From Candidatus Nanopusillus acidilobi (GTDB lineage Archaea > Nanobdellota > Nanobdellia > Nanobdellales > Nanobdellaceae), in assembly GCA_001552015.1 (NCBI GenBank), contig CP010514.1:330001-362000 (forward strand): 32,000 nt of DNA, written 5' to 3'. The notes below the pieces were generated by a model. That model saw only the letters and a program-made list of their open reading frames with translations. It made no database searches and was not told the origin of the DNA. Below, piece by piece: positions 2 through 24,770 of the stretch; position 1 is the stretch's first letter, and every line of letters begins with the position of its first letter. Position numbers and translations under genes: made by a program.

Positions 2-280
2 TTATTTTTCTCTTTTTTCTCAGACAAAAAATTTAATATATTTAATTTATTAAAATTAGAACCTCTATACTTTTTTAAAGTTCCAAAAGATATTACAATA
101 AACATAGTTTATTCAAAATTACCTGATCAAAGTATAAATATAGATAAGAATAGTATTGAAAATATATTAAAGGATTTCTTTGAAGTAGATACTATACCTT
201 CATTATCAAAACCAATCCATATTTTAGAAAGTACAAACAGAGAATATAAAAGAAAATTTAGTAAAATTAAAAAATTATAA
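2..280 (+). CDS. 3' end of an unidentified protein gene (5' part lies outside the window)
   Basis: Frame 2 is open from the window edge to TAA at 278-280 (93 codons, ending ...KPIHILESTNREYKRKFSKIKKL). It is missing from the ORF track because no start codon lies in the window. It overlaps the convergent infB stop by 6 nt. No recognisable motif. Confidence 0.4.
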   Translation, partial: LFFSFFSDKKFNIFNLLKLEPLYFFKVPKDITINIVYSKLPDQSINIDKNSIENILKDFFEVDTIPSLSKPIHILESTNREYKRKFSKIKKL

Positions 281-2050
281 TCCCCAAGCAGGGTTTTCTT
301 TTCTTATTATATTTGCTATTTCTTTTAATATTTCCTTTTGCTCATCATTTAAAATATCTTTATTTTCCTTAAATTTCCTATAATCATTTTCAGATATAAA
401 AGTATATAATATATCATCTTCAAATATGTTTCTTCCAACTACTGCATCATCTATAGATATGGCAACTTTATCATTTTTTATAGCTACATCTATATTCTTC
501 TTTTCTTTTTGTATTGTCAAAATTCTTCCAATTATTTTTCCATCTAAATTAATTAAATATACATCTTTTCTTATTTCTCCTCCTAAAACTTCAATTCCAA
601 CAATTGCAGGATTTGATCTTCTAAATATATTTCCCTTTAATATTTTTATCTTTCCTATTGGTGGTAATTCTCTTAATATTTTTTCTTTATTATATTTTAT
701 ATCATTAATATATTTCTCAATTTTTTCAATCAAATCATATATAACACTTGATATTATTAAATTTATATTTGAAGATTTTACATATTCTTCATCATTCTTA
801 TTTATTCCAATATTAAATCCAACTATAACAGAATATTGAGGATATTTTTCTTTCATAGATAATGCAATATTTACATCTTCTTTATTTATATCCCCTATAT
901 CAGCTTTTTTTATTGGTATATTTCTATCTCTTAACATTTTTATTAATACTTCCAGTGATCCTAAAGTATCTGCTTTAACAATAATACCTTCCTTATCAGT
1001 TTGAAATATTATGTTTTCAATATCTTTTTTCAATTTTTCTTCTATTTCCTTTAATTCTTTTTCATCATTATATACATAGATTGTAGAACCTGGTAATGCA
1101 TTATCTAATCCATCTGCTGATATTCTTATCCCACATGCAGCATATGCAACATCTATTTCTTTAAATTTACTTCTACTAGTGAATCTAATATCTGTCAAAG
1201 GTGCTGGTTTTAATATTAATTTTACTTTTGCTGTTTTAATACCATCTCTTGATAAAAAAACAATTTTATCACCTTTCCTTATTTTACCATCATATAATAT
1301 TATATCTATTACACTACCTAAACCCTTTTCTTCTTTTACTTCTAAAATTACACCAACACCATTTCCTTCAACATTTATTTTTAATTTTTCTTCTAAATAT
1401 CTTTGAGAAAGTCCTGCAATTAATAATAATAAATCAGGAATACCTTCTCCAGTTTTTGAAGAAATTGGAACAATTGCAACTTGTCTTCTAAAATCCTTTA
1501 CTCTATCATATCTATCAGAATCAAATCCTAATTCATATAATTTAGTTACAATATTATATGTATATTCTTCTAATTTGTTTATTACTTTTTGATCTTGATA
1601 TTTTATACTTTCTAAAAATGGTTTATTTTCATAAGGTTTCCATCCATCTATTTTATCTATCTTATTTAATGCAATTAAAAATGGTACTTTTAATTGTTTA
1701 CATATTTCTATTGCTTCATATGTTTGCTTTTGAAACCCATCCAATATATCTACTACAATAATTGCTAAATCTGAAACAGATCCACCCCTTTTTCTTAAAT
1801 TACTAAATACTTCATGACCAGGAGTATCAATAAATAACAAAGAAGGAATTTTTAGATCAAATTTAAACATATTTAATAATGGTTTTGATATTTCCTTAAT
1901 TACATCAATCGATACTTCAGTAGCTCCAATATGCTGAGTCATTTCACCAGCTTCTTTTTTTGTATAAGATGTATTTCTAATCTTATCTAATAGAGAAGTT
2001 TTACCAGCTCCAACATGACCTAAAACAACAATTATTGGAGATCTTATCAT
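275..2050 (-). CDS. infB: Translation initiation factor aIF5B (IF-2 family GTPase)
   Basis: 591-aa ORF with an ATG start. G1 motif VLGHVGAGKTSLLD, G3 DTPGH and G4 NKID are present, followed by the beta-barrel and C-terminal domains typical of aIF5B. No intein-sized insertion. Confidence 0.95.
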   Translation of the reverse strand: MIRSPIIVVLGHVGAGKTSLLDKIRNTSYTKKEAGEMTQHIGATEVSIDVIKEISKPLLNMFKFDLKIPSLLFIDTPGHEVFSNLRKRGGSVSDLAIIVVDILDGFQKQTYEAIEICKQLKVPFLIALNKIDKIDGWKPYENKPFLESIKYQDQKVINKLEEYTYNIVTKLYELGFDSDRYDRVKDFRRQVAIVPISSKTGEGIPDLLLLIAGLSQRYLEEKLKINVEGNGVGVILEVKEEKGLGSVIDIILYDGKIRKGDKIVFLSRDGIKTAKVKLILKPAPLTDIRFTSRSKFKEIDVAYAACGIRISADGLDNALPGSTIYVYNDEKELKEIEEKLKKDIENIIFQTDKEGIIVKADTLGSLEVLIKMLRDRNIPIKKADIGDINKEDVNIALSMKEKYPQYSVIVGFNIGINKNDEEYVKSSNINLIISSVIYDLIEKIEKYINDIKYNKEKILRELPPIGKIKILKGNIFRRSNPAIVGIEVLGGEIRKDVYLINLDGKIIGRILTIQKEKKNIDVAIKNDKVAISIDDAVVGRNIFEDDILYTFISENDYRKFKENKDILNDEQKEILKEIANIIRKENPAWGL

Positions 2051-2897: not shown

Positions 2898-5800
2898 TTA
2901 TGAATAAAATAGTTCATAATTTCCAAATCCTTGTGGTATAAATGTATTATTTGTAGATATTATATTTCCATTACCTCCTACTATCTTTTCTACAATATAA
3001 CTAGTAGCAGATAATAGATTAATAAATGTAATATTTCCATTTATATTTCCTATTATTGATATTCCTTCATAATAATTATATAATGTGTTATTTACATTCG
3101 TACTAGATATTACACTACTTAAACTATTTATGAATCCTTGTGAATTATTATAATATACATTTACACTTCCTGTAGATGTTGTTAAATTATCTATATATCC
3201 ACTTCCATATATTTCAATACCTAATTGTGAATTATATAATGATATGTTTGTTGCATTACCTGTTAAATAATATCCAAATAATCCTCCATTTGTTGTTACA
3301 TTTATTATATTATTATAAGCAGTTTCATATAATCCAAATACCTGTCCTACTTTTATATAATCATTTTCTATATTATTTCCTGAAGATGTTAAATATATTC
3401 CAAATATATTTGATTCTATATTGTTATTTATTATATTATTATTATTTCCATTATTTATCTTTATTCCAAATATGTTAGATATTACATTACTATTTTCTAT
3501 TACATTATTTACTGCATTTCCATCAAAATCTATTCCAAATATTTGTCCATTTATATTTGAATTATTTATTATTACATTATATGGATTGTCATCATATATT
3601 CCCCATACTGATGATTGAATATTTGTATTTTCTATTGTTGAATTTTGTATATAACCATATATTCCTCCTATATTTCCATTTATTGTAGAATTATATACAT
3701 TTACTACTGATGGATTCTTTACATCTATTCCAAACAATCCTGAATTTATATTATCATTTATTAAATTAATAGTTCCATTTTCTACATTTATTGCAAATAG
3801 ATTTGTATTAATATTTATATTCTGTATTGTTACATTTGATGATAATACATCTATAACAGGTAATCCTGGATTTGCAGGTTCAAATATTGTATTTTGTCCT
3901 AATAATGTTATATTTTGACCTTGTGGGTTTATTATTAAGTTTACTAAATATACTCCTGGAGAGAATACTACTACAGGTATAGAACTATTAATTGCTGAAT
4001 CTATTATTCCTTGTATTTGTGTATTACTTAATGTTGGATTTATTACTGATACATTATATGCATTTTGTGATATATATATTACCTGGGGATTTGTATATTG
4101 ATTTAATCCATAATTATTATATGCATATACTTTATACCATATTGAATAATATCCATTACTATTTAATTTTGCATATTCTTGTAATATTCCATTATATAAT
4201 ATATCTGAACATGAATTAATTATTGTTACCCATTGATTACTTGTTTGATTTAATAATTGTATTTGACAATAATCTTGACCTAAAGTATTATCATATACAT
4301 TTGCACTAACTTCTAATAACCATATATTTTCTTGTGTACCATTTGATGGTGTAGGATATGTATATGATACATTAAATATTGGTGAAGGTAATGTATAAAC
4401 ATATATTCCTGTTGAATTTGTTATTCCCTCAGGATTCGATGTTGATAATTCTATTGTAATATTTCCTCCATTTGGTATAATATTATATAATCCTGGTAAA
4501 TTATATGATGAATTTTCATAATTTAATTGAATAATATTATTACCTGGTGTTACATTTATATTATATGTTTGTCCATTTATTGTTACATTTACATTTGGAT
4601 AATTTGTATAGAATGATATATTTAGTTGATAATAATTTGATACTGAATTATTAGATGGGGATATAATATATATTTGTGGATTAACTATAGGAATTATTGT
4701 AATTGTAGTAGAATTCGTAACTCCGTTTGATGCAACACCAGTTACTGTTACACTATAAGTACCTGGTTGTATATTACTATTTGCACTTACTGTTAATGTT
4801 ACTGATGCATTTGGAGTAACAGTAGTATTAGATAAGGAACATTGTAGATTTGAATTACTTGTTGAACAAGATAAAGTAATAGATGCAGGAGTTCCACCAC
4901 TTAGTTGGGTAATATTTATTATTGTAGAATTCGAAGAACCAGCATTTACATACATACTACTTGGTCCCTGTATTGAGAATGAATATGGCTGTACATTAAC
5001 TGTTATAGTAGTAGAATTCGTAACTCCATTTTGCGCTGTACCTGAAATTGTTACTGAATATGTTCCTGGAGTAATTGAAGATGAAGCAGTAACAGTTAAA
5101 GTTACTGATGCATTTGGAGTAGCTTGAGTACTTGATAGTGAACACGATAAATAACTACTATTTGTAGAACAAGATAAGCTAACTGGTAATGGAGATCCGC
5201 TATTTAATTGAGTAATATTAATTGTTGCCGAATTAGAAGAACCCACATATGTATTAATACTACTTGGTCCCTGTATTGAGAATGAATATGGCTGTACATT
5301 AACTGTTATAGTAGTAGAATTCGTAACTCCGTTTGATGCAACACCAGTTACTGTTACACTATAAGTACCTGGTTGTATATTACTATTTGCACTTACTGTT
5401 AATGTTACTGATGCATTTGGAGTAGCTTGAGTACTTGATAGTGAACACGATAAATAACTACTATTTGTAGAACAAGATAAAGTAATGGATAATGGGGACC
5501 CACTATTTAATTGATTTACATATATTGTTGTAGAATTACTATAATTTGTATAAACATCTATACTACTTGGTCCCTGTATTGAGAATGAATATGGCTGTAC
5601 ATTAACTGTTATAGTAGTAGAATTCGTAACTCCATTTTGCGCTGTACCTGAAATTGTTACTGAATATGTTCCTGGAGTAATTGAAGATGAAGCAGTAACA
5701 GTTAAAGTTACTGATGCATTTGGAGTAACAGTAGTATTAGATAAGGAACATTGTAGATTTGAATTACTTGTTGAACAAGAAAGAGTAACTGGCAAAGGTG

Positions 5801-6527
5801 TGTTTCCTGTTAATTGATTTACATATATTGTTGTAGAATTACTATAGTTTGTATAAACATCTATACTGCTTGGTCCTGTAATATCAAAAGTAAATACTGG
5901 AAATCCTAATACTAATGCAGAAACATATTCCGTTGATCCTGGACCAGGGCCAACGTTAAATGAAACACTATAAGTACCTGGAGCTAAATCTTTACATTCC
6001 GCAGCATATACACTTATTTGAGGTGAAGATGTTAAAAATAATTGAGAACATCCATTAGGTAATGTTACCCCACCAATATTACCTCCATTCTTTGTTCCTC
6101 CCGAGGATATTAATATTAATACTGTTTCATTTTGCCCTGAAACAGTATATGAAACTGTTACTGGACCTGGTCTATTATATGTATTTGTAAAAGTAGTTAA
6201 AATAACTGGAACAGAATAATTATTTATAGAAACTCCACCAATTGCATAATTATTAGCTGTAGTAGTAAATGAACAGGTATTTGTACTAGAATTTCCAATT
6301 ACTGCATAATTTCCATTATTTACCATTACATTAAAACTTGGAGTAAGGGTTGAACCTGCAGAAGAAGCAACACAATAATATATATTTGCTGTAGATAATG
6401 TTACACTCTTAGCTTGAGCACTATTACTTCCAACAACATCTGCTCCAACCTGTGAATATATATTAAATGTAGAAATTAACAATAGAAGGCTTACTATAGC
6501 AAAATATAATATTCTTTTTATTCCCAT
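2898..6527 (-). CDS. Large secreted surface protein: signal peptide, four 101-aa Ig-like tandem repeats and a C-terminal parallel beta-helix (candidate adhesin or S-layer-associated glycoprotein)
   Basis: 1209-aa ORF with an ATG start. N-terminus MGIKRILYFAIVSLLLLISTFNIYS is Sec-signal-like. Residues ~211-611 form 4 repeats. Residues ~905-1110 show a 20-23-aa periodicity (xFGIxx). Very many N-x-S/T sequons. Only 2 Arg, about 10 Lys and no His by my reading. Confidence 0.85.
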   Translation of the reverse strand: MGIKRILYFAIVSLLLLISTFNIYSQVGADVVGSNSAQAKSVTLSTANIYYCVASSAGSTLTPSFNVMVNNGNYAVIGNSSTNTCSFTTTANNYAIGGVSINNYSVPVILTTFTNTYNRPGPVTVSYTVSGQNETVLILISSGGTKNGGNIGGVTLPNGCSQLFLTSSPQISVYAAECKDLAPGTYSVSFNVGPGPGSTEYVSALVLGFPVFTFDITGPSSIDVYTNYSNSTTIYVNQLTGNTPLPVTLSCSTSNSNLQCSLSNTTVTPNASVTLTVTASSSITPGTYSVTISGTAQNGVTNSTTITVNVQPYSFSIQGPSSIDVYTNYSNSTTIYVNQLNSGSPLSITLSCSTNSSYLSCSLSSTQATPNASVTLTVSANSNIQPGTYSVTVTGVASNGVTNSTTITVNVQPYSFSIQGPSSINTYVGSSNSATINITQLNSGSPLPVSLSCSTNSSYLSCSLSSTQATPNASVTLTVTASSSITPGTYSVTISGTAQNGVTNSTTITVNVQPYSFSIQGPSSMYVNAGSSNSTIINITQLSGGTPASITLSCSTSNSNLQCSLSNTTVTPNASVTLTVSANSNIQPGTYSVTVTGVASNGVTNSTTITIIPIVNPQIYIISPSNNSVSNYYQLNISFYTNYPNVNVTINGQTYNINVTPGNNIIQLNYENSSYNLPGLYNIIPNGGNITIELSTSNPEGITNSTGIYVYTLPSPIFNVSYTYPTPSNGTQENIWLLEVSANVYDNTLGQDYCQIQLLNQTSNQWVTIINSCSDILYNGILQEYAKLNSNGYYSIWYKVYAYNNYGLNQYTNPQVIYISQNAYNVSVINPTLSNTQIQGIIDSAINSSIPVVVFSPGVYLVNLIINPQGQNITLLGQNTIFEPANPGLPVIDVLSSNVTIQNININTNLFAINVENGTINLINDNINSGLFGIDVKNPSVVNVYNSTINGNIGGIYGYIQNSTIENTNIQSSVWGIYDDNPYNVIINNSNINGQIFGIDFDGNAVNNVIENSNVISNIFGIKINNGNNNNIINNNIESNIFGIYLTSSGNNIENDYIKVGQVFGLYETAYNNIINVTTNGGLFGYYLTGNATNISLYNSQLGIEIYGSGYIDNLTTSTGSVNVYYNNSQGFINSLSSVISSTNVNNTLYNYYEGISIIGNINGNITFINLLSATSYIVEKIVGGNGNIISTNNTFIPQGFGNYELFYS
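3198..3815 (-). repeat. About ten degenerate 20-23-aa beta-helix coils (PbH1-like) in the surface protein
   Basis: Aromatic-Gly motifs recur every 20-23 residues: LFAINV, LFGIDV, IGGIYG, VWGIYD, IFGIDF, IFGIKI, IFGIYL, VFGLYE, LFGYYL, IEIYG. They are separated by Asn-rich turns. Confidence 0.6.
4695..5897 (-). repeat. Four tandem 303-bp (101-aa) coding repeats inside the surface-protein gene
   Basis: The string gaatatggctgtacattaac recurs at 4981, 5284 and 5587 (period 303). Stretch 4705-4818 is identical to 5311-5424 (114 nt, offset 606). About 70 nt from 4801 equals the stretch from 5710 (offset 909). Confidence 0.95.
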
Positions 6528-6718: not shown

Positions 6719-7405
6719 TTATCCATATAAAGATATATAGTTTATAGATCCATTGAAATATTGAAAATAATTTAAATATACTGTTGGATAAATATTCATT
6801 AATATGTTTGGAAGACCAACAATTTTATCCCCATTATACAAGTATAGTACTGTATTATAATTATTTATAATTAAGAATTTTTCATTTGTATTTATATAAA
6901 TACTAGAATTTCCAATTAAATTAAAATTACAATATAGGAAAGTTCTTGTATATACACTAAAAAATGAAGAACTTAAATAATTATCACAATTATAATATGC
7001 AGAATTGTTTGTTATATTAATATTTTGTGTTATTCCATATATATAAACTTGTAAAATAGATGATACATTTATATTAGAGTTCTGAATTATTTCTATATTG
7101 TTTGAACTCATATTATAAAAAAATTCTATACAATTATTACAAATGTATGAGTTTGTAGATAGAAATATAACATCTGGAGTATAATAATATGAAAAAGAAA
7201 AATTTGTATAATTATATACTATTTGTGGATCATAAAATTGAGAAAAATAAAAAGAACTGGTATATAATTTTTGATATTCAGATATTTTATATAATCCGGA
7301 AGAATATTGAGATAATCCATTGACTATATCTTGATACATATAAACTATAATGTATAAAAATACAGCAAGTGTAATCAATACCTCGATCCAGCTTTGAGAT
7401 TTCAT
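6719..7405 (-). CDS. Hypothetical pilin-like, N-anchored and sequon-rich extracellular protein
   Basis: 228 aa with an ATG start. The N-terminus [24 protein letters not shown] has a short basic leader, then a hydrophobic helix with Glu at +5 if cleaved after Ser3. At least 8 N-x-S/T sequons. ATGA overlap with the upstream platform gene (7402-7405). Confidence 0.6.
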
Positions 7406-8658
7406 ATTGTTACATTAATACTTTGTTTTTGTATATATTTTTTCCCATTATAATTTAATATTGCTTCTACAATATATGTACCAGTGCTATTTAATTCGAT
7501 AGACTGAGAATAATATCCATTCTGTAATATTTGAAAATTCTGGTAAACATAATTTCCAGCTGAATTTATTACATATATTGTTAATGGGGCATTTGTTATT
7601 GGTTGTGCATCAATATATCCATATACTTGTATATTTATTGGAGTATATACATAAGCAGTTGTTGGAAAAACTTGTAAATTAAATGATACAAAAGAGGGTA
7701 GAACAAAAATTACTATAGATAATAATCCTATTAAATTGTTTATTGCTAAATGTTTTACTGAAGATCTTAATTTTCCACTTTCAGCAATGCCCATTATAAT
7801 TGATGCTGAAATTCCTACCATAATTATTGATAAAGATGTAATAAACTTTAACCATGAATAATTTATTTGAGAAGAAAAGAAATTAAATGTTGTATGAATG
7901 GTAGAAACTGAAATTTGACTTATTATCAATGGTTTAATTGTATCTAATATAGAAATTGATAATCCAACAAATATAATGAATATAGCATATAAAACCAATA
8001 TTTGTTGTGATATATATGCTCTCTTTAGTCCATCCAATTCCTTTACGGACTCTAGATCATTATATAACCTTTTTAAAACCTTTGAAATATCACCCCCACC
8101 CTTATATGTTTCTAATATTACATAATTAATCATCTTTATATTTGGAAGTTCTTCAAAATACATATTAAATAGTGTAAATGCCTTTTCAAATGGCATACCC
8201 CAAGCAATCCAATTATATAATTTTTTAACTAAAATAGATAAATATCCTAAATCTACCGAAGATAGATATGCCAGAGCATCCAATAATGTCATTCCGGATG
8301 CTAAACTTTCAGATAAATAAGATAAAAAATATGTATAGTTATTAGATATATTTTCATATATTTTACTTTCAATATACTTGTAAAATAGGTATGGAACTCC
8401 TCCCACAAGATATATAACTATTATTAATATTGAAAGTGCTACATAATTTTCATATAATTTAAATATTATTCCAAATATTCCAATAATTGATGCAAACAAA
8501 ATAGATATATATAATATAAATCTATCTTCCTTAATATATGAACCAAAAACATTTATTTCTTTATAATGTAATGGATCCTTTATATTGAAAATTTGATCTA
8601 TAAATCTTTCAGTTAATCCTTTTTGATTTACCCCTTTATTATATGTATTAGTTATCAT
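7402..8658 (-). CDS. Single-domain T2SS-F/FlaJ/TadC-like polytopic membrane protein with an extra C-terminal beta-rich domain
   Basis: The ORF track starts it at 8682, but that codon is TTG; the first ATG is at 8658. Cytoplasmic helical domain LSESLASGMTLLDALAYLSS...ETYKGGGDISKVLKRLYNDLES is flanked by TM segments. The C-terminal ~90 aa (FPTTAYVYTPINIQVYGY...TYIVEAILNYNGKKY) look like a beta-sandwich. Confidence 0.7.
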   Translation of the reverse strand: MITNTYNKGVNQKGLTERFIDQIFNIKDPLHYKEINVFGSYIKEDRFILYISILFASIIGIFGIIFKLYENYVALSILIIVIYLVGGVPYLFYKYIESKIYENISNNYTYFLSYLSESLASGMTLLDALAYLSSVDLGYLSILVKKLYNWIAWGMPFEKAFTLFNMYFEELPNIKMINYVILETYKGGGDISKVLKRLYNDLESVKELDGLKRAYISQQILVLYAIFIIFVGLSISILDTIKPLIISQISVSTIHTTFNFFSSQINYSWLKFITSLSIIMVGISASIIMGIAESGKLRSSVKHLAINNLIGLLSIVIFVLPSFVSFNLQVFPTTAYVYTPINIQVYGYIDAQPITNAPLTIYVINSAGNYVYQNFQILQNGYYSQSIELNSTGTYIVEAILNYNGKKYIQKQSINVTI

Positions 8659-8675
8659 TATACTTTTAATTTTGG

Positions 8676-9542
8676 ATGTCAATATTTAAATATATGGTTA
8701 GTATATTTGATCAATTTTTTAGTGGTATAGAAAGGGATCTATTAATAATTAATTCTAAAGAAGATCCTTCTAAGTATATATATAAAGCTAAAATGTATTC
8801 AATAGGAATATCAATATCTGTATCAATATTAACATTCTTTTCCCTTTTAATGTATAATATAAAAGTATATGGATCTTTTAATCCAACTTTTCCAATAATA
8901 TTTGGAATACTTACTGGTATCGTAGGATTTTTTGGATCTTTATTTTTATTTAAAAAATATCCTTCAATAGAAAAACAAAATAGAGCTAAAAAAATAGATA
9001 ATTCTTTATATTATGCCGTATTATATATGGCTTCTTTAGTTTCTTCTGGTGCAACCCCAAAAGCATTATTCGAATTATTATCAAAATATAGCGAATTTTC
9101 AGAAATAAAAAAAGAAGCATCTGAAATAATATACTTAATAGATACTGTAGGGTTATCACTACCATTAGCATTAGAAAGAAAGGCGGAATATTCTCCATCA
9201 AAGAAATGGGCTTCAATATTAAATGGAATGAAATCAATAATAGTTGAGGGTGGAAATCTTGAGGAGTATTTATATAATGAAGCTGAGAAATTATTTGATG
9301 AATATAAAAGAAAAATAATAGAATATTCAAATAATATGCAAGTATTCTTAGAAATATATATAACATTAATAATTGTAGGAGTTATATTTGTAATTATATT
9401 AACTACATTGATGGGATCTATTTCTGGAACAAACTTTCAATACATAGAATTTATACAATTAATGAGTATATTAATAATATTGCCAATGGGTACAGTTATG
9501 TTTATTATATTACTAAAAGCAATTAGTCCATTTGAAACATAG
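8676..9542 (+). CDS. Single-domain T2SS-F/FlaJ/TadC-like polytopic membrane protein
   Basis: 288 aa with an ATG start. YYAVLYMASLVSSGATPKALFELLSKY...LPLALERKA...MKSIIVEGGNLEEYLYNEAEKL is the GspF/FlaJ-type cytoplasmic domain, flanked by TM helices. Confidence 0.75.
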   Translation: MSIFKYMVSIFDQFFSGIERDLLIINSKEDPSKYIYKAKMYSIGISISVSILTFFSLLMYNIKVYGSFNPTFPIIFGILTGIVGFFGSLFLFKKYPSIEKQNRAKKIDNSLYYAVLYMASLVSSGATPKALFELLSKYSEFSEIKKEASEIIYLIDTVGLSLPLALERKAEYSPSKKWASILNGMKSIIVEGGNLEEYLYNEAEKLFDEYKRKIIEYSNNMQVFLEIYITLIIVGVIFVIILTTLMGSISGTNFQYIEFIQLMSILIILPMGTVMFIILLKAISPFET

Positions 9543-11298: not shown

Positions 11299-14200
11299 AT
11301 GACATCTGAAAATTCTAATTTAAATAATAATAAACAAGAAACAAAAGTTAATAGATTAAGAAAAATATTCTCATGGAATATACTAATAGATGTATTATTA
11401 ATTATATTTATATTCTTATTTACTTTGGGATCAAAAGGTTTATTACTTAATTTCTTAGGAAATTATTCTTTAGTAGGACCTGATGCATACTTAATGTTTA
11501 AATATTTTGAATCTTTAGTATTTAATCATACAGTAAATAGTTTTACATATAATTTAAATTATCCATTACCATTTTATTTATACAATAAAGATCTTGTATC
11601 ATATTTAGCATTTTTATCTTATTTGATGTTCCAAAACTTTGGTAATCAAATTATTGCATTATTAAATATTTTACAAATACATCCAGCATCAAATATTATT
11701 TTATGGTTAGCAGCAGACTTTACAAATGTATATGTTCCTGCAATTGCTTCAATTATATTTTATTTTTTAGCAAGGAATATATTCAAAGATAAATATTTAG
11801 CACTTTTTTCTTCTATGATTTTTGCTATAAATCCATTTTTGACAACAAGACTAATTTTATTTGATACTGAATTAGGAGCAATTATTTTCCTAGTATTATC
11901 TTTCTACCTTATAATTAAATACTTTAATGCAAAACCTGAGAATAATAAATACAAAAAATTATTCTTAATTCTTTATTCAATTATTAGCTTAATAATATTT
12001 TATAAAACATCTTTATTACCAAATCCAGATGTATATTTAACAATTGAATTATTTGTATTCTTCTTTATATTATTATTATTATATCCAGTATTCAAAGGAT
12101 CAAGAGCTTATTATTTAACATTATTAATATTTACTACTGCATTAACTAGAAAAGGATGGGGTGGATGGATAATAATACCAATTGTATTTGGTTTAACATT
12201 ATTAATTAGATATTTCTATGATAGAGATTATAAAGATATATATTTCTATTTACCATATATTGGATTTACTGGAATATTAGATAATTTATTAACACCTGGG
12301 GTTTTAGGAATTGGTTTATTTTTAAGTTATCACAATCTATTTTTAGAACTTTCAATGATTTTGATATTTTTATATGAAATATTAAAAGATAATAAAATAC
12401 TGGAAAAAATTACTGAAAGTAAAACATATCTGCTAATATTATCTATTTTGTCTGGATTAATCCCAGGAATACCTATATTCATTATAAATAAATATACTAA
12501 AGATAATAAATTACTAAAGAAATATACAATATTTCTAATAATCCTTATTATATCCTTACCATTTTTAATTGATAAATTAATTATATCTTTCTTATATAAT
12601 CCATTTACATATGCAAGAATGGGTTCTACAATTGCAGAATTTCAACCAACTACTGCAGGATATTATTTTGGTTTATTTGGACCAATTGGTTTAATATTAA
12701 CTTATTTGGGTCTTGGATATCTAATATTTGATAAAAATAAGTCTAAAAATCTTTTAATATCTGAATTTTTGTTTATATTTATATTAACTATATCGGAATT
12801 TCTTATTGGCCCATCTATATATCTTTTAACATTTTATCTATTAATTTATTCTATATTTATAATATCATATAATAAAGAAAGTAATATATATGATATTATA
12901 AAGACAATATTTGAAACATTTACATTATCAATTGCCATTCAATTTGTAATATTTTCAGATTTAGTAATTAATGGAATATATATAAGTATATTTATATCTT
13001 GGGTTACTTTTCTCATTTTAGCAGTCTATATTTCATTATTTAATAGAAATCTAAATGATGGAGAAATATTTGTATTATCATTATCATTTATAGCACTTAT
13101 TGTAGGAAAATATATATATGAATTAGTTTATTATAATGGTTTGGCTCTCCCATTATTATATATATTTGGTATAGAAATATTCAATTTATTTAAAGATGAA
13201 TTTTCCAAATTAAAGAATATTATAAAAGAAAATTTAATATTAATATTATTATTAATTTCATCTATTTCAGGAATATCTCTATTTATATCAACAAACATAT
13301 TCTTATTCTTAATTCCACTGATATTTTTAGCAATATATATTTTATATGAATATATATTAGATAAGAATTTGGACCTATTTAATTTATTTAAATATAGTTT
13401 AATTTTATTTACAATATTTGGTCCTTTATTTTCTATAAGCAATAAAATCTATGGATATCCTGGATATATAGCAAACTATTTTTCAAGTGCTGGTCAATAT
13501 GGAACTCCAGATTATGAAATAAATACTTTCTTATGGATAAGTCAAAATACTCCACAAAATTCTATTATAAATTCTTGGTGGGATTATGGATATTATATTT
13601 ATGTATTGGGAAATAGAACTGCATGGATAAATGGTGCAAATGCATATCCATATTGGAATCATTTAATGGGTAGATATGGTTTATCTTCAGATAATATAAC
13701 ACAAACATTACAATTATTCTATGTACATGCAGATTATAATTATCAAACATTTAAAACATTGGAATTATTCAATGAAAATTCAATATTCTATAATTATTTA
13801 TATAAATATTTGGGATTTAATGAAAGTGAAGTAAATGAAATTGAAGAATTAAAAGATTCCTTAGGATATAAAAATTGGATAAATCTATTATATCAATTTA
13901 ATGGATCTCCAGAATCAATTTCATCATATAACTTATCTCAACAAGATATAGAACTATTAGAAAAATTGTATAATATGAATTATTTGAAACCAGCATATTT
14001 ATATATAGATCCTACAGATATAGGAAAATCCTTTGCTTTCCAATTTTTAGGATCAAATGAAAGTTATGATAAAGAATCATGGATATCTCAATTTGCATCT
14101 GGAACAACAGAAAATCCGGGACCAACAATACCTTCAGTATATTATGATGGATATTATATATTTGCAACAAATAATAGTTTATTCTACTTTGGTCAAGAAC

Positions 14201-14877
14201 CATTGGATCAAGATTTGAATATTAATGGAACTATAATAAATAGATGCATATATGTACAGAACCAGGGTATAATTAACCAAAATAGTTGTGGAATAATAAC
14301 TGGAGTCCAATTATTATTTAATCAATCTATAGTAGAAAGATCTGGAATATATCAGACATTAAATATAGATAATATTAATCCAGATAATTTAATAGGGGCA
14401 TATGTATATATTTATTATCCATTAAATAATCAACAATATTCACTTTCATTAAAATATATAGATATTGATGGACAATTGATTACATTTAATAATTCTCAAT
14501 ATGATGGATTATTATATATAACCCCAGATTACTCATTATTACAGCAAAATAATCCATTAGGATTGTTCTTATATGCATATTTTATATCACAAAAAGCTAC
14601 CCAATATGATTGGGTACAATTATATTTCTTAAACAATGATTATAATGGAACATTTAATCCTGTATTTTATTCAAATGAATTATATAGCCTTCCTTCAATA
14701 ATATATTATGATATTCCTCCAGCAAAAGTATGGAAAATTAATTTCCCAGAGAACTTCACAGTTCCAGATTATTTATATTGTATCTATCTAGCAACAAATA
14801 TTCAACAAATAAATGAATGTGGAAAAATATATAATTTAGCCTATTATGAAAATATGAAAAATTATTATGATGTATGA
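11299..14877 (+). CDS. aglB: Archaeal oligosaccharyltransferase AglB (STT3 family), unusually long
   Basis: 1192 aa. WWDYG lies at residues 760-764 (nt 13576-13590). An acidic EL1-like motif [11 protein letters not shown] sits near residue 60. The polytopic N-terminal region is about 750 aa. Confidence 0.9.
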
Positions 14878-15877
14878 AGAAATTTTAATTGCTGTATTAC
14901 CACTAATATTGTCTTTTTTTGTTTCATATTATTTAATAAAAAAATGGATACCAATTGCTCATAAAGAAGGATATATAGGAAAAGATATGAATAAGTATAA
15001 TAAACCTGAAGTAGCAGAAATTGGTGGTTTATATGCAATAATTGGTACAATATTTGGAATATTATTATATATTGGATTAAAAGTATATATATTAGGAACT
15101 ACAGAAGATTTAGTAGAAGTATTTTCAATATTAACATTATTATCATTAACTACAATATTAGGATTATTTGACGATATATTAGGATGGAAAAAAGGATTGA
15201 AACCTTTACATAGAGTAATTCTATCATTTATATTAGCACTACCATTAATGATAATATCTGCAGGTAATTCATATATTAATTTACCATTTGTAGGAGAAGT
15301 AAATTTTGGAATATTATATCCACTATTAATAGTACCAATTGCAATAATGGGTACATCAAATGCATTTAATATGCTTGCTGGATATAATGGTTTGGAAGGA
15401 TCTATGGGTATTTTACTAATTGGTGCAATAGGATTAGAGTCATATTTAATTGGTAATTATTATTTAGCAGAAATATCATTAATAACAATATTTTCAATAA
15501 TAGCATTTCTAATATTTAACTGGTATCCAGCAAAAGTATTTCCTGGAAATGCATTTACATATGGTATTGGATCTCTATTTGGTGCAATAGTAATATTAGG
15601 AAACCTTGAAAAATTTGGACTAATTTTGTTTACATTATATTTCTTGGAATTGATATTATTTATAAGAGGACTATTAAATCATATATACAAAGAAAACTTT
15701 GGAATACCTGATGAAAATAATAATCTAAAAGAACCATATGATAAAACATATAGTGTTACTCATCTTGCAATTAAAATAAATAGAAAGATATTTAAGAAAG
15801 CAACAGAGAAAATGGTGGTATATACAATAATTTTACTACAAATAATAATAACAATAATAGCTTTTATATATGGATAA
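14867..15877 (+). CDS. Dolichyl-phosphate HexNAc-1-phosphate transferase (Alg7/AglH type, Glycos_transf_4 family)
   Basis: 336-aa polytopic protein. Motifs LFDDILGW and NAFNMLAGYNGLEGS (eukaryal/archaeal GPT-type N-x-x-N-x-L-A-G-x-N-G-L-E). Overlaps aglB by 11 nt. Confidence 0.8.
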   Translation: MMYEEILIAVLPLILSFFVSYYLIKKWIPIAHKEGYIGKDMNKYNKPEVAEIGGLYAIIGTIFGILLYIGLKVYILGTTEDLVEVFSILTLLSLTTILGLFDDILGWKKGLKPLHRVILSFILALPLMIISAGNSYINLPFVGEVNFGILYPLLIVPIAIMGTSNAFNMLAGYNGLEGSMGILLIGAIGLESYLIGNYYLAEISLITIFSIIAFLIFNWYPAKVFPGNAFTYGIGSLFGAIVILGNLEKFGLILFTLYFLELILFIRGLLNHIYKENFGIPDENNNLKEPYDKTYSVTHLAIKINRKIFKKATEKMVVYTIILLQIIITIIAFIYG

Positions 15878-17660
15878 CTTAATCTATATCTTTTTTAATA
15901 AAGATACAAGAAAATTAATTTACAATATTAAAATATTATATAATTTCTGCCAAAAAAATAATTTAAATCTAATTTGTATAACTTATAAGAAATATAAAGA
16001 TATAGCATTAAAAATAAAAGAAAATTATAATTTAACATTTTATCTATTAGAAAATAAAAAAGAAATTAGAAAATTAAAAATTGAAGGAAATAATATAATA
16101 ATATACAATAATATAAATAAAAATATATATGATATATATAGAAAAAGAAAATTTATAGATAATCTTATTGGTTTAATAAGAGAGAATTTCCTAATTTTCA
16201 ATTTAATAAACCCATATATAATATTTGGAAAAAACATTAGAATATATGAAAATTTTTTATTAACATATTTAGGAAATAAAAAATTCTATATAGATGAAAG
16301 ATATAAAATTAACAAATTTTTCTTAGAAGAATTATTTATTAATTTAATAATATATTATGATAAAATAATTAAGACTTTTAATAAAATATTGAATCTAAAA
16401 TATTTCAAAGATTATATACATGAAAAAATAGGATTAATAACATATAAAGCTATCACTTTTTTATTATTAGTAATTTTAGCTAGAATATTAACAGATACAT
16501 TCTATGGAGCATATGTATCAATATATAATTTTTTAGGATTGATTGCTGGAATAATAGGATCCTCAAATATAATATTAACAAAATATTTATCCGAATATAA
16601 AGATAATAAATATATTAAAATTGATATATATCTAAAAATTATTTTTTCATTATTTATCCTTCTAATTATTTTCATATTTCCAAATTATTTCTTATCTACA
16701 ACTTTCTATGGATATAATTTTATAGATGTTTTAATCATATACATAACTGCAATATTATTATCTTTAATCGGAGTTTATTTTTCTATATTTTATTCGCAAT
16801 TAAATATAGAATCTGCTAAAAATCTATACATATTAGAAGCTTTACTTAAATTTATTTTCATAGTTTCTTTAACAATCATAATAAGGAATACTGGTTTTAT
16901 ATTTGGTTTATTTTTAACCTATTTTATTTTAAGTTTTGTTTATCTTTATAAATTAAAGAAAAATAAAATTAATTTTGTATCAATATTAAAAGAAAAAATT
17001 AATTTTAATGATTTTAAAAAATATCTAAAATCTACCATACTTATTAGTCTGCCAGTAACTTTACTAGGTTTATATTCTTCAATAGATATACAAATATTAA
17101 GAACATTTACAAGCTATAATATAGTTGGAGAATTTTATTCTGCATTAGTAATTGTCTATACATTATCTGGAATATTCACTATAGGTAATATAACATTACC
17201 AAGAATATTAAGATGGGAAAAAGAAAAAGTTATTAGAAACATAAATAGATTAATATTAATACAATTTCTAATTAACATTATATTAACTGGATTAATAATA
17301 TTAATTGGTCCTTATATAATACTAATTATATTTGGAAAAAATTATCAATTATCAGCAAATATAATAAAATATCTTTCCATTATTTTAATAATAAATTCTT
17401 TGAATGTATATAACTTAATATTATATAGAAGGGATATGGAAAAATATTATCCAATATATGCAATAACAACTGCTCTACTTTCAATAATTACAGATATTAT
17501 ATTGATATCAAAATTTAAATTATCTGGAGCAATTGCTTCAGCAATATTAGCAAATACATATATTGGACTAATAAGTTATATTATATATGAAACAAAATTC
17601 AATAATATCCCTTCCAGATCTATTTTTAGATATAATTACAAAGAAAATAGATATAAATAA
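15870..17660 (+). CDS. Wzx/MOP-type oligosaccharide flippase-like membrane protein with an unknown ~190-aa soluble N-terminal domain
   Basis: 596 aa. Residues ~190-596 contain about 12 hydrophobic segments and start like polysaccharide-biosynthesis (Wzx) proteins (ITFLLLVILARILTDTFYGAYVSIYNFLGLI). The N-terminal part is Lys/Asn/Ile-rich with no motif I recognise. Confidence 0.55.
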   Translation: MDNLIYIFFNKDTRKLIYNIKILYNFCQKNNLNLICITYKKYKDIALKIKENYNLTFYLLENKKEIRKLKIEGNNIIIYNNINKNIYDIYRKRKFIDNLIGLIRENFLIFNLINPYIIFGKNIRIYENFLLTYLGNKKFYIDERYKINKFFLEELFINLIIYYDKIIKTFNKILNLKYFKDYIHEKIGLITYKAITFLLLVILARILTDTFYGAYVSIYNFLGLIAGIIGSSNIILTKYLSEYKDNKYIKIDIYLKIIFSLFILLIIFIFPNYFLSTTFYGYNFIDVLIIYITAILLSLIGVYFSIFYSQLNIESAKNLYILEALLKFIFIVSLTIIIRNTGFIFGLFLTYFILSFVYLYKLKKNKINFVSILKEKINFNDFKKYLKSTILISLPVTLLGLYSSIDIQILRTFTSYNIVGEFYSALVIVYTLSGIFTIGNITLPRILRWEKEKVIRNINRLILIQFLINIILTGLIILIGPYIILIIFGKNYQLSANIIKYLSIILIINSLNVYNLILYRRDMEKYYPIYAITTALLSIITDIILISKFKLSGAIASAILANTYIGLISYIIYETKFNNIPSRSIFRYNYKENRYK

Positions 17661-20494: not shown

Positions 20495-20965
20495 TTATAA
20501 AAATAATTCATTTATTTCATAATAAACTATATCATTTTCTATATCAATTATTGCCAATAAAATTTTATTTAAATTCTTTGAATCCATGAAATTTAAAATA
20601 TCTTTAATGTATAGAAATTCATTTTCATATATTGGATAAACATAATATAATATCTTTTCTTTTTTATAATCTGTATATAAAATAATTGAGTCATTTTCTG
20701 TATCTAGATAATGTCCTTTATTTCTTAAATCTTCAAATACATAAAATTTCTTCATATTTAATATATTTTTATATTTTTTAATAAAATCTAAAAAATTATT
20801 TATTCCTTCTAATTTTATCCATCCTTTTTTTATACAATATAAAGCCTCTTCAGGTTCTAAAATAATGTAATCTTTATCCATCTTTCCAATTCTTCCTATT
20901 TTATCATAAAACTCTTTATTTAAAATAAATTTATTATTAAATTCTCTAACTAAAATTTTTTCCAT
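20495..20965 (-). CDS. tRNA splicing endonuclease, structural (beta) subunit
   Basis: 156 aa. EndA-like YVFEDLRNKGHYL and C-terminal ILLAIIDIENDIVYYEI, but no catalytic His/Lys pattern. Overlaps the alpha subunit gene by 16 nt. Confidence 0.65.
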   Translation of the reverse strand: MEKILVREFNNKFILNKEFYDKIGRIGKMDKDYIILEPEEALYCIKKGWIKLEGINNFLDFIKKYKNILNMKKFYVFEDLRNKGHYLDTENDSIILYTDYKKEKILYYVYPIYENEFLYIKDILNFMDSKNLNKILLAIIDIENDIVYYEINELFL

Positions 20966-21378
20966 CTTATTTCTAGAAATCTATAATTATTATTATCCTT
21001 TACACAATATAAAATTCTTTTTCTAGTGCTATGTGCAACTCTATTTTTTGCTAAAAAATCATATATATCTATTTTTTCATTAATATTTATTGGAATAGCA
21101 ACCCATTTTGAATGTTGCTTAATATCTTCATATATTCTAAATATACCACCAAATTTTAATCCTGTACCTAAATAATAACCTCTCTCTCTAAAATATTTAT
21201 ATATATCATAATATAACTTAATTTTTTCATCTTTTAAAAAATAATTTATATCTAATTTATTATTTTTCTCATCATAAACTTCAATTTCATTTTTTTCTAA
21301 TAAATATAAAACTTCATAGAAATATAAAATCTTATCTTCTGATAAAAATACATTATCTTTATATAATACTCTTTTCAT
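20950..21378 (-). CDS. endA: tRNA splicing endonuclease, catalytic (alpha) subunit
   Basis: 142 aa. YKYFRERGYYLGTGLKFGGIFRIYEDIKQHSKWVAIPI...RVAHSTRKR contains the Tyr/His/Lys catalytic pattern of EndA. Confidence 0.8.
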   Translation of the reverse strand: MKRVLYKDNVFLSEDKILYFYEVLYLLEKNEIEVYDEKNNKLDINYFLKDEKIKLYYDIYKYFRERGYYLGTGLKFGGIFRIYEDIKQHSKWVAIPININEKIDIYDFLAKNRVAHSTRKRILYCVKDNNNYRFLEIRWKKF

Positions 21379-21518: not shown

Positions 21519-22370
21519 TTAGCTTCCCCCTAGAGAAACCACTGATTGAGATAGAACAGCTGGTATAGCCCCACCATATTGCGATGTATATCCATTTACT
21601 GGTGTTATTTGTATATTATAATTTTCATTTACTGATAATCCACTAGGTAGATAATACATTATCTCATATAATTCTCCAGTTGTTAAATATACATTTTCCT
21701 GACTTATAGATAATCCAATTATTGCATATGGATTTTGAATTCCAGCTTCATTCATTGATTGCAATATTTGGAATACTTGATTTATACTTAATGGATATCC
21801 AATTATTGAAGAATTTAATCCTATTGTACATGAAACTAAAGTTCCATTTACATATGTAAAGTTTGTATATATATACTGATTTGTGAAATTATTTAATGCA
21901 GAACATACCTGTGAATCATTTATTGTTACATTTTGTACATTTACTTGGTTATCAAACATAAATCCTGTTATTATAAAGCTTCCTCCTTGTAATACACCAT
22001 ATATTGCTGTAGGTTCATATTGGGAAGGTGCATATGAATATACATCTCCATTGCTATCTGTAATTAAAGTACTTACATATTCAAAATTAATTGGATTAGA
22101 ACCTGGCATTAATGATACAACAGGTCCTAAGGCGGTTATTTTTTGTAAATAATTATTTAGTTGACCACTTGATGGATCATATTGATATCCAAATACTTGT
22201 GTAATTTGCATACCTGTTGTTATTCTTTGTTCAGCTTGCGCACCTGTTTGTAATGCTTTTGATTGTAAAGAACTTGCTGTATATATTATTACACCAGCTG
22301 CTACTGCTGCCGTTACTATTATTGCTATTAATATAATTAATGTTGACAAACCAAACTGTGCCCTTACCAT
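21519..22370 (-). CDS. arlB: Archaellin (archaeal flagellin, FlaB/ArlB family)
   Basis: 283 aa. The N-terminus MVRAQFGLSTLIILIAIIVTAAVAAGVIIYTASSLQSKALQTGAQAEQRITTGMQITQVFG is the canonical archaellin class-III signal plus hydrophobic helix. Confidence 0.85.
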   Translation of the reverse strand: MVRAQFGLSTLIILIAIIVTAAVAAGVIIYTASSLQSKALQTGAQAEQRITTGMQITQVFGYQYDPSSGQLNNYLQKITALGPVVSLMPGSNPINFEYVSTLITDSNGDVYSYAPSQYEPTAIYGVLQGGSFIITGFMFDNQVNVQNVTINDSQVCSALNNFTNQYIYTNFTYVNGTLVSCTIGLNSSIIGYPLSINQVFQILQSMNEAGIQNPYAIIGLSISQENVYLTTGELYEIMYYLPSGLSVNENYNIQITPVNGYTSQYGGAIPAVLSQSVVSLGGS

Positions 22371-23566: not shown

Positions 23567-24184
23567 CTATTGATATGCTTGATAGCCTAAAGAACTACAT
23601 GATGAATAACCTGTATTTGGATTTACAGAACATTGCATTATATCATAATATTGAGTTGGTGGGATTACTACTCTAAATCCCATTTGTAAATTACTTACAG
23701 AATAATTTATTGTTGCATTTAAACATGGTCCTCCAATAATTGTTAAATTAACATTTGCTACCGATTGTGCTGGTATTGCTTGTCCATAACTTAATGTTTC
23801 ATTATATGTTGCATCATATACAGATTCTGCTATACCAATATTTGCAGCATCAGCTACACTTTCAAATACTGGAGTTGTACATATTACATCACCATTTGGA
23901 GTTGTAAAGTCAATAAACCATCCATTTAATGGTATATCTGTTGGTCCTAAATTATATAATGTAAATGTAACTGTTGCTACACTTCCATATTCAGAATATT
24001 CAACATCATGAATTGTAAATTGTGGTACTGCAGATTGTTGTTGATTTAATTGCAATTTTGTAATTGAATATCCAGCACTTTTTAAATAAACATCAACAAG
24101 GATATATGTACTTATTGCAGCTAATGCAACCAAAAATATAAACAAAAAAATTGATTGAAAGGCTTGTCCTTTCATTTTAGCCAT
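23567..24184 (-). CDS. Archaellum accessory (ArlF/ArlG-like) or minor pilin-like protein
   Basis: 205 aa. MAKMKGQAFQSIFLFIFLVALAAISTYIL is a class-III-like leader plus TM helix. It is followed by a beta-rich domain (VATVTFTLYNLGPTDIPLNGWFIDF) resembling FlaF/FlaG. An alternative start at Met4 (24175) would remove the 8-nt overlap. Confidence 0.45.
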   Translation of the reverse strand: MAKMKGQAFQSIFLFIFLVALAAISTYILVDVYLKSAGYSITKLQLNQQQSAVPQFTIHDVEYSEYGSVATVTFTLYNLGPTDIPLNGWFIDFTTPNGDVICTTPVFESVADAANIGIAESVYDATYNETLSYGQAIPAQSVANVNLTIIGGPCLNATINYSVSNLQMGFRVVIPPTQYYDIMQCSVNPNTGYSSCSSLGYQAYQ

Positions 24185-24770
24185 ATAATATTACTGTTGG
24201 ATATATCATTGCTGCCGGAGTTACACCTGATAGATCATATGGTTGTCCATTTGGTGGTATTACAGAGAATTCCCATGTTTGTGATGTTCCTAATGATACA
24301 TTAGCATATACTAATAGTGCTGCCAAATCATTTGGTCCCAATACTCCATTGTATAATAATCCTGAATTATCTACTGAATCATGTTGATCAATATAATAAT
24401 ATCCTGTATATCCTGTTACTAATGAAGAGTTTGCTACAGCTCCTCCATATGCAAATATTTCTCTACCAGCTGGAGAATAGAATATTACTGCTGTTTGATT
24501 GAATAATATTGGCTGTGATCCTGGTGCTAATCTTGTATATACTAAGAATTCTTGTACTGCTTGTGATGATGTATTAACATTTATACCTTCTACTCTTACA
24601 ATTTCTACAGTTGTACCAGATGTTTGTACTGTTTGTTGTGCTGCAGCTGCTGCATGTCCTTGTGCACTAGTTGTTGCTCCAATAATTACTAATGCTGCTA
24701 TTGCTGCTGTCAATGCTGCTGCTATAAATAATACCATTGCTGAAAAACCAGATCCTCCTTGACCTTTCAT
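24177..24770 (-). CDS. Short archaellin-family protein
   Basis: 197 aa. MKGQGGSGFSAMVLFIAAALTAAIAALVIIGATTSAQG...TVEIVRVEGINV...VYTRLAPGSQPILFNQTAVIFY follows the archaellin N-terminal helix and first beta-strands. Confidence 0.7.
   Translation of the reverse strand: MKGQGGSGFSAMVLFIAAALTAAIAALVIIGATTSAQGHAAAAAQQTVQTSGTTVEIVRVEGINVNTSSQAVQEFLVYTRLAPGSQPILFNQTAVIFYSPAGREIFAYGGAVANSSLVTGYTGYYYIDQHDSVDNSGLLYNGVLGPNDLAALLVYANVSLGTSQTWEFSVIPPNGQPYDLSGVTPAAMIYPTVILYG

Follow-up and report, generated by a model that had tools for sequence, protein, structure and literature searches.

Tandem Ig-like repeats with a block mosaic of module versions, probably shaped by gene conversion and unequal crossover, in a secreted protein gene of Candidatus Nanopusillus acidilobi

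The repeat gene and its product

Candidatus Nanopusillus acidilobi is an obligate ectosymbiont of Acidilobus, and its genome was closed at 605,887 nucleotides (nt) as a hybrid assembly of PacBio RS II data from 8-10 kb libraries and MiSeq 2x300 reads (PMC4935971). The stretch analysed here, called the window, comprises 32,000 nt of that genome (contig CP010514.1, positions 330,001-362,000). It is very AT-rich archaeal DNA, with a guanine plus cytosine content of about 23%, and all coordinates given below are window positions. On the minus strand, the window contains a gene for a secreted all-beta protein of 1209 amino acids (aa), in which four tandem units of 303 nt form a mosaic: short modules, each existing in alternative versions, are combined differently from one unit to the next. 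Literature searches on N. acidilobi brought up no account of this mosaic. The features of the gene are collected in Table 1.

The composition of the protein is unusual, with 12 lysine and arginine residues, 48 N-X-S/T sequons and 14 cysteines. Its first 26 residues would be either cleaved as a signal or retained as an anchor, and no C-terminal anchor motif is recognised in the translation. The protein is presumably exposed at the cell surface and is probably heavily N-glycosylated. With so few lysines and arginines along 1209 aa, it is expected to be missed by tryptic shotgun proteomics. This expectation is our own, as the authors of the N. acidilobi study made the argument only for the predicted surface-layer (S-layer) protein Nps760 (PMC4935971). 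An S-layer identity for the repeat protein itself was rejected, since its Nanobdella homologue is MJ1_0451 and not the proposed S-layer MJ1_0160 or MJ1_0707 (PMC11420986).

The repeats are followed by a beta-rich middle region and by a C-terminal region that is probably a right-handed beta-helix. In the latter, a DNA repeat family at 3393-3827 has most of its successive copies spaced by 63-69 nt, and the full-length AlphaFold2 model shows long regular strands with a predicted local distance difference test (pLDDT) score of about 70-90. The family PF13229 is found among the precomputed annotations of three orthologues (P0007, P0009 and P0012), while a Pfam scan of the window protein itself does not return it at E <= 0.1. 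Searches of PDB sequences with the N-terminal and C-terminal parts of the protein gave nothing useful.

Table 1. Coordinates of the repeat gene, its regions, repeat units and module versions (unit nt, position within a 303-nt unit)
Feature	Window position	Strand	Basis or remark
Secreted all-beta protein gene, 1209 aa	2898..6527	-	Open reading frame (ORF) translation, composition, syntenic orthologues in Nanopusillus and Nanobsidianus
Hydrophobic N-terminus, signal or anchor, aa 1-26, MGIKRILYFAIVSLLLLISTFNIYSQ	6450..6527	-	Translation
N-terminal domain, aa 27-217	5877..6449	-	Low pLDDT in full-length model; no PDB sequence match
Unit R1: head H1, middle A, tail a; aa 218-318	5574..5876	-	Protein-phased alignment
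Unit R2: head H1, middle B, tail b; aa 319-419	5271..5573	-	Protein-phased alignment
Unit R3: head H3, middle B, tail a; aa 420-520	4968..5270	-	Protein-phased alignment
Unit R4: head H4, middle A, tail b; aa 521-621; ends with array-terminal linker IIPIVNPQIYI	4665..4967	-	
Middle region, aa 622-891, beta-rich, low-confidence model	3855..4664	-	Full-length model
Right-handed beta-helix region, probable; 22-23-aa coils N-x-x-I-x-x-N-I-F-G-I	3117..3854	-	DNA periodicity, model, orthologue PF13229
Middle version A (unit nt 105-149) in R1	5728..5772	-	Identical copy in R4, 4819-4863
Middle version B in R2	5425..5469	-	Identical copy in R3, 5122-5166; 19/45 nt differ from version A
Tail version a (unit nt 171-243) in R1	5634..5706	-	Identical copy in R3, 5028-5100
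Tail version b in R2	5331..5403	-	Identical copy in R4, 4725-4797; 33/73 nt differ from version a
21-nt block (unit nt 150-170), same in 4/4 units	5707..5727	-	Also 5404-5424, 5101-5121, 4798-4818
74-nt inter-domain linker block (unit nt 244-317)	5560..5633	-	Identical at R1/R2, R2/R3, R3/R4; also 5257-5330, 4954-5027
Unit nt 21-59			R1R2 vs R3R4, 11 sites
Unit nt 105-149			R1R4 vs R2R3, no exceptions, 19 sites
Unit nt 171-243			R1R3 vs R2R4, no exceptions, 33 sites
Unit nt 244-303			R1 = R2 = R3, no varying sites

Mosaic structure of the repeat array

The array was recovered by Tandem Repeats Finder as 3.6 copies of a 303-nt period (4792-5880), and by a repeat search as four copies at 303-nt spacing (4698-5906) that are 70-84% identical to the reference copy. 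It is coding and in frame, and when the units are phased on the protein domain they occupy 4665-5876 (aa 218-621). Each unit consists of a head, a middle module, which spans the hairpin between Cys34 and Cys43 and the loop after it, and a tail, with the invariant 21-nt block at the middle/tail junction. A first-pass annotation, made from the sequence alone, had described two versions of the middle module and two of the tail, combined as Aa, Bb, Ba and Ab, and a head shared by the first two units that differs in the other two. Protein phasing returns the same four module peptides, the same assignment and the same relation between heads.

Copies of the same version are identical over long runs. 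The 114-nt identity between 4705-4818 and 5311-5424, already pointed out in the annotation, is exact, and R1 and R3 share a still longer exact run of 168 nt (5560-5727 and 4954-5121). Over the middle module, the exact runs measure 74 nt in R1/R4 and 77 nt in R2/R3.

Over unit nt 1-263, there are 68 parsimony-informative sites, of which 11 group R1 with R2 against R3 and R4, 22 group R1 with R4 against R2 and R3, and 35 group R1 with R3 against R2 and R4. These three mutually incompatible partitions are arranged in five contiguous blocks, and the grouping switches only 4 times along the unit. The few informative sites in addition to those of Table 1 fall in a mixed region at unit nt 61-104. In 100,000 shuffles of the sites, at least 25 switches were always obtained (p < 1e-5). 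The mosaic is real and far beyond chance, and the breakpoints between modules look sharp, as described in the annotation. By contrast, the presence of every 2x2 combination, although true as stated, is unremarkable by itself, because, when each version is present twice, the full set of four arises from 4 of the 6 possible pairings. It was dropped as evidence; the significant feature of the array is its block structure rather than the complete 2x2 set.

Age of the module versions

Between copies of one version, the proportions of synonymous (pS) and non-synonymous (pN) differences are both 0, whereas between versions pS is 0.60-0.68 and pN is 0.33-0.35. The differences between versions include switches between TCA and AGT serine codons. 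Thus, the saturation of synonymous sites indicates that the versions are ancient and not the products of recent mutation, while the identity of same-version copies, synonymous sites included, indicates recent copying. The recent shuffling proposed in the annotation therefore holds for the identical copies but not for the module versions themselves, which are not newly generated. Positive selection between versions is not supported either, as pN/pS is about 0.5 and pS is saturated.

Related loci and concerted evolution

The array was compared with related loci from metagenome-assembled genomes (MAGs), single cells and metagenomes of Nanopusillus and Nanobsidianus, which gave 36 complete units from 16 loci and the window. 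Most of these loci were reached by exact-protein look-ups, and a metagenome search for related loci yielded only two partial ones. Most also come from short-read assembly, in which repeats can be made falsely uniform or put in the wrong order; the window alone has long reads behind it. The loci share a gene order in which two FlaJ/TadC-like genes, an ORF of 228 aa, the repeat gene, a nucleotidyltransferase gene and the aIF5B gene follow one another, with the nucleotidyltransferase missing from one locus (L015).

Syntenic orthologues of 909, 1008, 1109 and 1209 aa contain 1, 2, 3 and 4 units, respectively, and carry differing module combinations, which answers the strain comparison that the annotation had suggested. 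Throughout the 36 units, the tail is strictly two-state: it never departs from its own type at more than 11 of 73 nt, its distance to the other type is 29 of 73 nt or more, and there are no intermediates. This also holds in single-unit genes and in a family of paralogues that has an additional domain at the N-terminus. The middle module is correctly described as having two versions within the window, but across loci it resolves into two sub-modules, mid1 and mid2, that assort independently, and all eight mid1 x mid2 x tail combinations are present. Two versions of each module exist, mid1 having a rare third as well, and the whole clade shares them. Heads, for their part, are positional, in the order H1, H1, H3, H4. 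Shorter arrays resemble fusions of the four-unit array, for instance H1-b, H3-a, H4-b in two loci (L011 and L012), as unequal crossover predicts. At the end of the array, two junctions are seen, '...VIPIVNP(Q/E)IYI' and '...NVQQLYNNPQIYI' (L001, L004, L006, L007 and L009 compared with window positions 4665-4700). The second one starts like an internal linker, which suggests independent deletions with different end points.

Further relatives differ in their repeat content. Nanobsidianus stetteri Nst1 has two paralogues (L005 and L007; also P0013-P0017), one of them longer by an N-terminal domain of about 360 aa, and both contain just one repeat unit, whose tail is of either version. The protein search brought up no second member of the family from the N. 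acidilobi genome. In Nanobdella aerobiophila, MJ1_0451 (P0018, 51% identity) has, at aa 243-542, one unit with an a-like tail followed by Ig-like domains that have strongly diverged from one another. Homogenised repeats of variable copy number thus seem specific to the Nanopusillus/Nanobsidianus lineage.

Within a genome, tails of the same type are nearly identical, with 0, 3, 0 and 0 differences for version a and 0, 0, 0, 2, 1, 4 and 0 for version b. Between genomes, the mean difference is 7.7 of 73 nt for a and 4.5 of 73 nt for b, that is, 6-11%, which is similar to the gene-wide divergence between strains (5-15%, or 85-95% identity). On sequence comparison, this contrast reads as the signature of concerted evolution, and it is repeated in several lineages. 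The ends of long identical in-register runs also recur in independent genomes: six times at unit nt 170, and further at 93-100, 148-150 and 242-263.

Under a rival reading, the units' number and order, or their composition, would be an invention of the assembler. Repeats that match exactly over 74-168 nt are indeed hard for short reads, and the contig of MAG DS.bin.8 (L008, 3312-3570) terminates inside its third repeat unit, direct evidence that the array breaks short-read assemblies. The hazard raised in the annotation is therefore real, and the array is a warning for short-read assemblies of DPANN genomes. Nevertheless, the window belongs to a genome closed with PacBio and MiSeq data (PMC4935971), the module junctions are only 21 nt long, so that single reads span each combination, and two independent four-unit assemblies (L003 and L010) agree with it in the order of heads (H1, H1, H3, H4) and tails (a, b, a, b). 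On the strength of the published sequencing strategy and of these assemblies, an artefact was rejected as extremely unlikely.

Another possibility is that the versions are shuffled mainly by lateral exchange between alleles of strains that co-occur in a hot-spring population. All eight module combinations exist across strains, two different two-unit alleles (L014 and L015) occur together in one metagenome (3300034404), and same-type modules diverge between strains as much as the gene as a whole, so that the versions behave like ordinary alleles. However, such exchange leaves unexplained the 74-168-nt identities between non-allelic units (R1/R3, R2/R4, R1/R4 and R2/R3), whose heads differ at about 20 of 60 nt, and same-type tail copies tend to cluster by genome and not by array position. 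As the main source of the mosaic, exchange between strains is improbable, and it is not mutually exclusive with intragenic conversion.

A dedicated diversification system, whether antigenic variation from silent donor cassettes or a diversity-generating retroelement (DGR), would be a third source. Segmental mosaicism in an exposed protein resembles that of pilE/pilS, vlsE and tprK, and DGRs are known in DPANN archaea. Against it stands the small, clade-wide repertoire described above, which contains no large variant set. Within the 32-kb window, even when 3 mismatches are allowed, each tail version is found only in two array units, and cassette-type variation was rejected for this lack of silent donors as well as for the repertoire. 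No reverse transcriptase, integrase, recombinase or transposase appeared among the window ORFs scanned. In addition, tails a and b differ by 27 transversions and 6 transitions, with adenine on either side and mostly T/A transversions in both directions; the substitutions are of all types and not adenine-specific, so that a DGR was likewise rejected. A system of this kind has hardly any probability left. The surface-variation mechanism considered in the annotation stands at the population level only, and nothing suggests a programmed or high-frequency system.

Structure of the repeat unit

A single unit with its flanks was modelled from 39 sequences, which included domains about 30% identical from other archaeal and bacterial surface proteins. 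The AlphaFold2 model reaches a pLDDT of 95.3 and forms a beta-sandwich, with eight strands assigned by DSSP. In Foldseek searches, it matches the immunoglobulin (Ig)-like linker domain of the sialidase of M. viridifaciens (Micromonospora), with a template modelling (TM) score of 0.69-0.71 and E of about 1e-5, and SbsC S-layer domains are likewise matched. Each unit is thus confidently predicted to be an Ig-like beta-sandwich domain of the E-set type. Profile searches with the window protein returned weak Pfam matches only (Wzt_C, NPCBM_assoc and others) and, in NCBIfam, only a sub-threshold match to a CopC-like Ig domain.

In the model, mid1 corresponds to the hairpin that joins strands 30-36 and 41-45 and that Cys34 and Cys43 bracket, and mid2 is the loop that follows it. 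The tail comprises the last part of strand 54-62, then loop 63-68 and strand 69-79. The full-length model is much poorer (pLDDT 60.9; predicted TM score, pTM, 0.38) and can be used for no more than the four repeats and the beta-helix region. Its Foldseek matches are generic strings of Ig domains, among which tandem-repeat matches to titin and an RTX adhesin are only suggestive of a rod, and a pTM of 0.38 makes the inter-domain geometry unreliable.

The versions shift the predicted glycosylation of the domain. Sequon N37 comes with version B of mid1 and N47 with version A of mid2, so that, depending on how the middle sub-modules are combined, this face has 0, 1 or 2 predicted glycans. Sequons N53 and N85 are invariant, and the heads toggle N10, N13 and N18. 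These shifts bear on the idea that selection actively maintains both versions of each module and that the mosaic serves as a functional code of a combinatorial kind. Possible reasons would be the avoidance of misfolding between identical neighbouring domains, or the provision of alternative glycan surfaces or of alternative surfaces turned towards the host. The idea is also favoured by the a/b split, which is far older than the strain radiation and has no intermediates in the 36 units, by the tails of neighbouring units, which differ in 16 of 19 pairs, and by the surface glycosylation of N. acidilobi, which has been demonstrated and proposed to matter for host recognition (PMC4935971). However, pN/pS between versions gives no sign of positive selection, the neighbour-pair counts are not phylogenetically independent, and the alternation of tails follows automatically from an a-b-a-b ancestor with deletions upstream of the tail. 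Moreover, arrays with one tail version exist (b,b in L015 and L017; a,a in L008), and both a and b are found alone in single-unit genes. Active maintenance by selection is therefore a possibility that we consider rather unlikely.

Proposed mechanism

The array was most likely produced by patchy gene conversion and unequal crossover between its own units through ordinary homologous recombination. The annotation had also favoured recent intragenic conversion or recombination, and this remains the best reading given synonymous identity within versions, saturation between them, incompatible groupings along the unit, and similar tails within other genomes.

In this scheme, homologous recombination would take place between misaligned units of one gene. 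Short, non-reciprocal conversion tracts would move a module version from one unit into another, which would keep same-version copies identical within a genome and, at the same time, re-assort the versions. Unequal crossover or slippage would add or remove whole 303-nt units, leading to the 1-4 copies seen among strains. The exchanges would start and end in the blocks that are identical in all units, namely the 21 nt at the middle/tail junction and the 74-nt linker block, which is a likely substrate for unequal crossover. Modules that are 40-45% diverged presumably cannot form a stable heteroduplex, and this would explain why tract ends fall in the identical blocks, why breakpoints are sharp and why versions stay unblended. 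As for the phenotype, such events would be expected to alter the length of a stalk and the positions of its glycans.

Several points weigh against this interpretation. Short-read assemblers can make near-identical segments falsely identical or place units in the wrong order, and the short-read origin of the comparison loci makes within-genome identity outside the window weaker evidence than it appears. Conversion is deduced from comparing sequences, and not from read-level or time-series observation. Exchange of alleles between strains could yield some of the re-assortment with no intragenic event. Finally, both tail versions persist in 9 of 11 multi-unit arrays, which neutral conversion alone does not explain.

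Neighbouring genes

Just upstream of the repeat gene lie the two FlaJ/TadC-like (T2SSF) genes, at 7402-8682 (minus strand) and 8676-9542 (plus strand). They stand back to back, a few bases being common to their 5' ends, and this arrangement is kept in all orthologous loci. Farther along, an orphan ORF of 1192 aa (11299-14877, plus strand), which has no Pfam or NCBIfam match, may encode another surface glycoprotein or the S-layer protein. It is directly followed by a family 4 glycosyltransferase gene (14867-15877) and a Polysacc_synt flippase-like gene (15870-17660). The window also contains the aIF5B gene and, on the minus strand, two adjacent genes for tRNA-intron endonuclease subunits (20495-20965 and 20950-21378), two archaellin genes (21519-22370 and 24177-24770) and a gene for one half of a split reverse gyrase, the helicase half (28830-30602). 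The split tRNA endonuclease, split reverse gyrase and archaellin genes are typical features of Nanoarchaeota.

Implications for surface variation

Host recognition and attachment by Nanoarchaeota are poorly understood, and the repeat gene offers a concrete, well-resolved example of a variable gene of surface type. In a population study of Nanoarchaeota, hypothetical surface proteins and a FlaJ/TadC homologue were noted for their high density of non-synonymous single-nucleotide polymorphisms (PMC6142677). The repeat protein resembles a glycoprotein with an Ig stalk. Its length and domain make-up, which vary between strains that occur together, its low lysine and arginine content and its FlaJ/TadC-like pilus platform neighbours make it a good candidate for a test of host specificity. 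A more far-reaching and speculative view, which we regard as doubtful, is that both versions are kept by selection and that recombination acts as a combinatorial dial on the host- or virus-facing stalk of this obligate archaeal ectosymbiont. If so, the dial would set the length of the stalk (1-4 Ig domains) and, for each domain, the pattern of exposed loops and N-glycans (N37 and N47); the protein would act as a determinant of the host range of Nanoarchaeota or of their escape from viruses, and it would be the first counterpart of the Periscope Proteins in an archaeon, with combinatorial variation as a further layer. Gene conversion between tandem repeats is a textbook process, as is unequal crossover, so the value of the case lies in the organism and in the cleanness of the mosaic and not in a new principle.

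Comparison with known systems

Cassette antigenic variation by segmental gene conversion is known from Neisseria pilE/pilS, Borrelia vlsE and Treponema tprK. As in these systems, short segments would be copied one way into a surface-protein gene that is expressed, and the borders of the mosaic are sharp. Unlike them, its donors would be neighbouring expressed repeats, each segment has two versions, and there is no evidence of rapid switching. A different parallel is offered by MSP1 of Plasmodium falciparum, which is built of conserved, semi-conserved and dimorphic blocks. It also has two ancient versions per block with no intermediates, and recombination with breakpoints in conserved blocks re-assorts them. 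There, however, the dimorphism is allelic, the gene being present in one copy in a eukaryote with a sexual cycle. In the array, the same two versions are found next to each other among the repeats of a single gene, in addition to differing between strains.

Concerted evolution of tandem surface repeats likewise involves homogenisation within a genome, gain and loss of units, and length polymorphism among strains. Here, in contrast to the usual case, homogenisation is patchy and halts at blocks with two saturated versions, leading to a combinatorial mosaic and not to uniform repeats. Recombination among tandem repeats is exemplified by repeat deletion in the alpha C protein found in group B streptococci (cited in PMC9704523).

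The closest known concept is that of the Periscope Proteins, such as SasG, Aap, Rib and Sgo_0707, which are bacterial proteins with tandem-repeat stalks of variable length (PMC8201768, PMC9704523). As in these, the repeat protein has tandem folded beta-sandwich domains of about 100 residues, is secreted, and carries a distinct non-repeat domain at each end. The folded repeat exceeds 50 residues, with four units of 101 aa modelled at the high confidence given above, the number of repeats varies among close strains (1-4), and long identical DNA runs are the presumed substrate for intragenic homologous recombination. There are also differences. Periscope Proteins are defined in bacteria, and neither of the two papers mentions archaea (PMC8201768, PMC9704523), while the present array is archaeal. 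Their repeats are near-identical, whereas the units here are 70-84% identical and mosaic, exact matches of 74-168 nt alternating with blocks that have diverged by 40-45%. The protein has an N-terminal hydrophobic signal or anchor but no recognised surface anchor, and its rod geometry is not established at a pTM of 0.38. Without filing it firmly among them, we would, by analogy, regard the array as working like a Periscope Protein.

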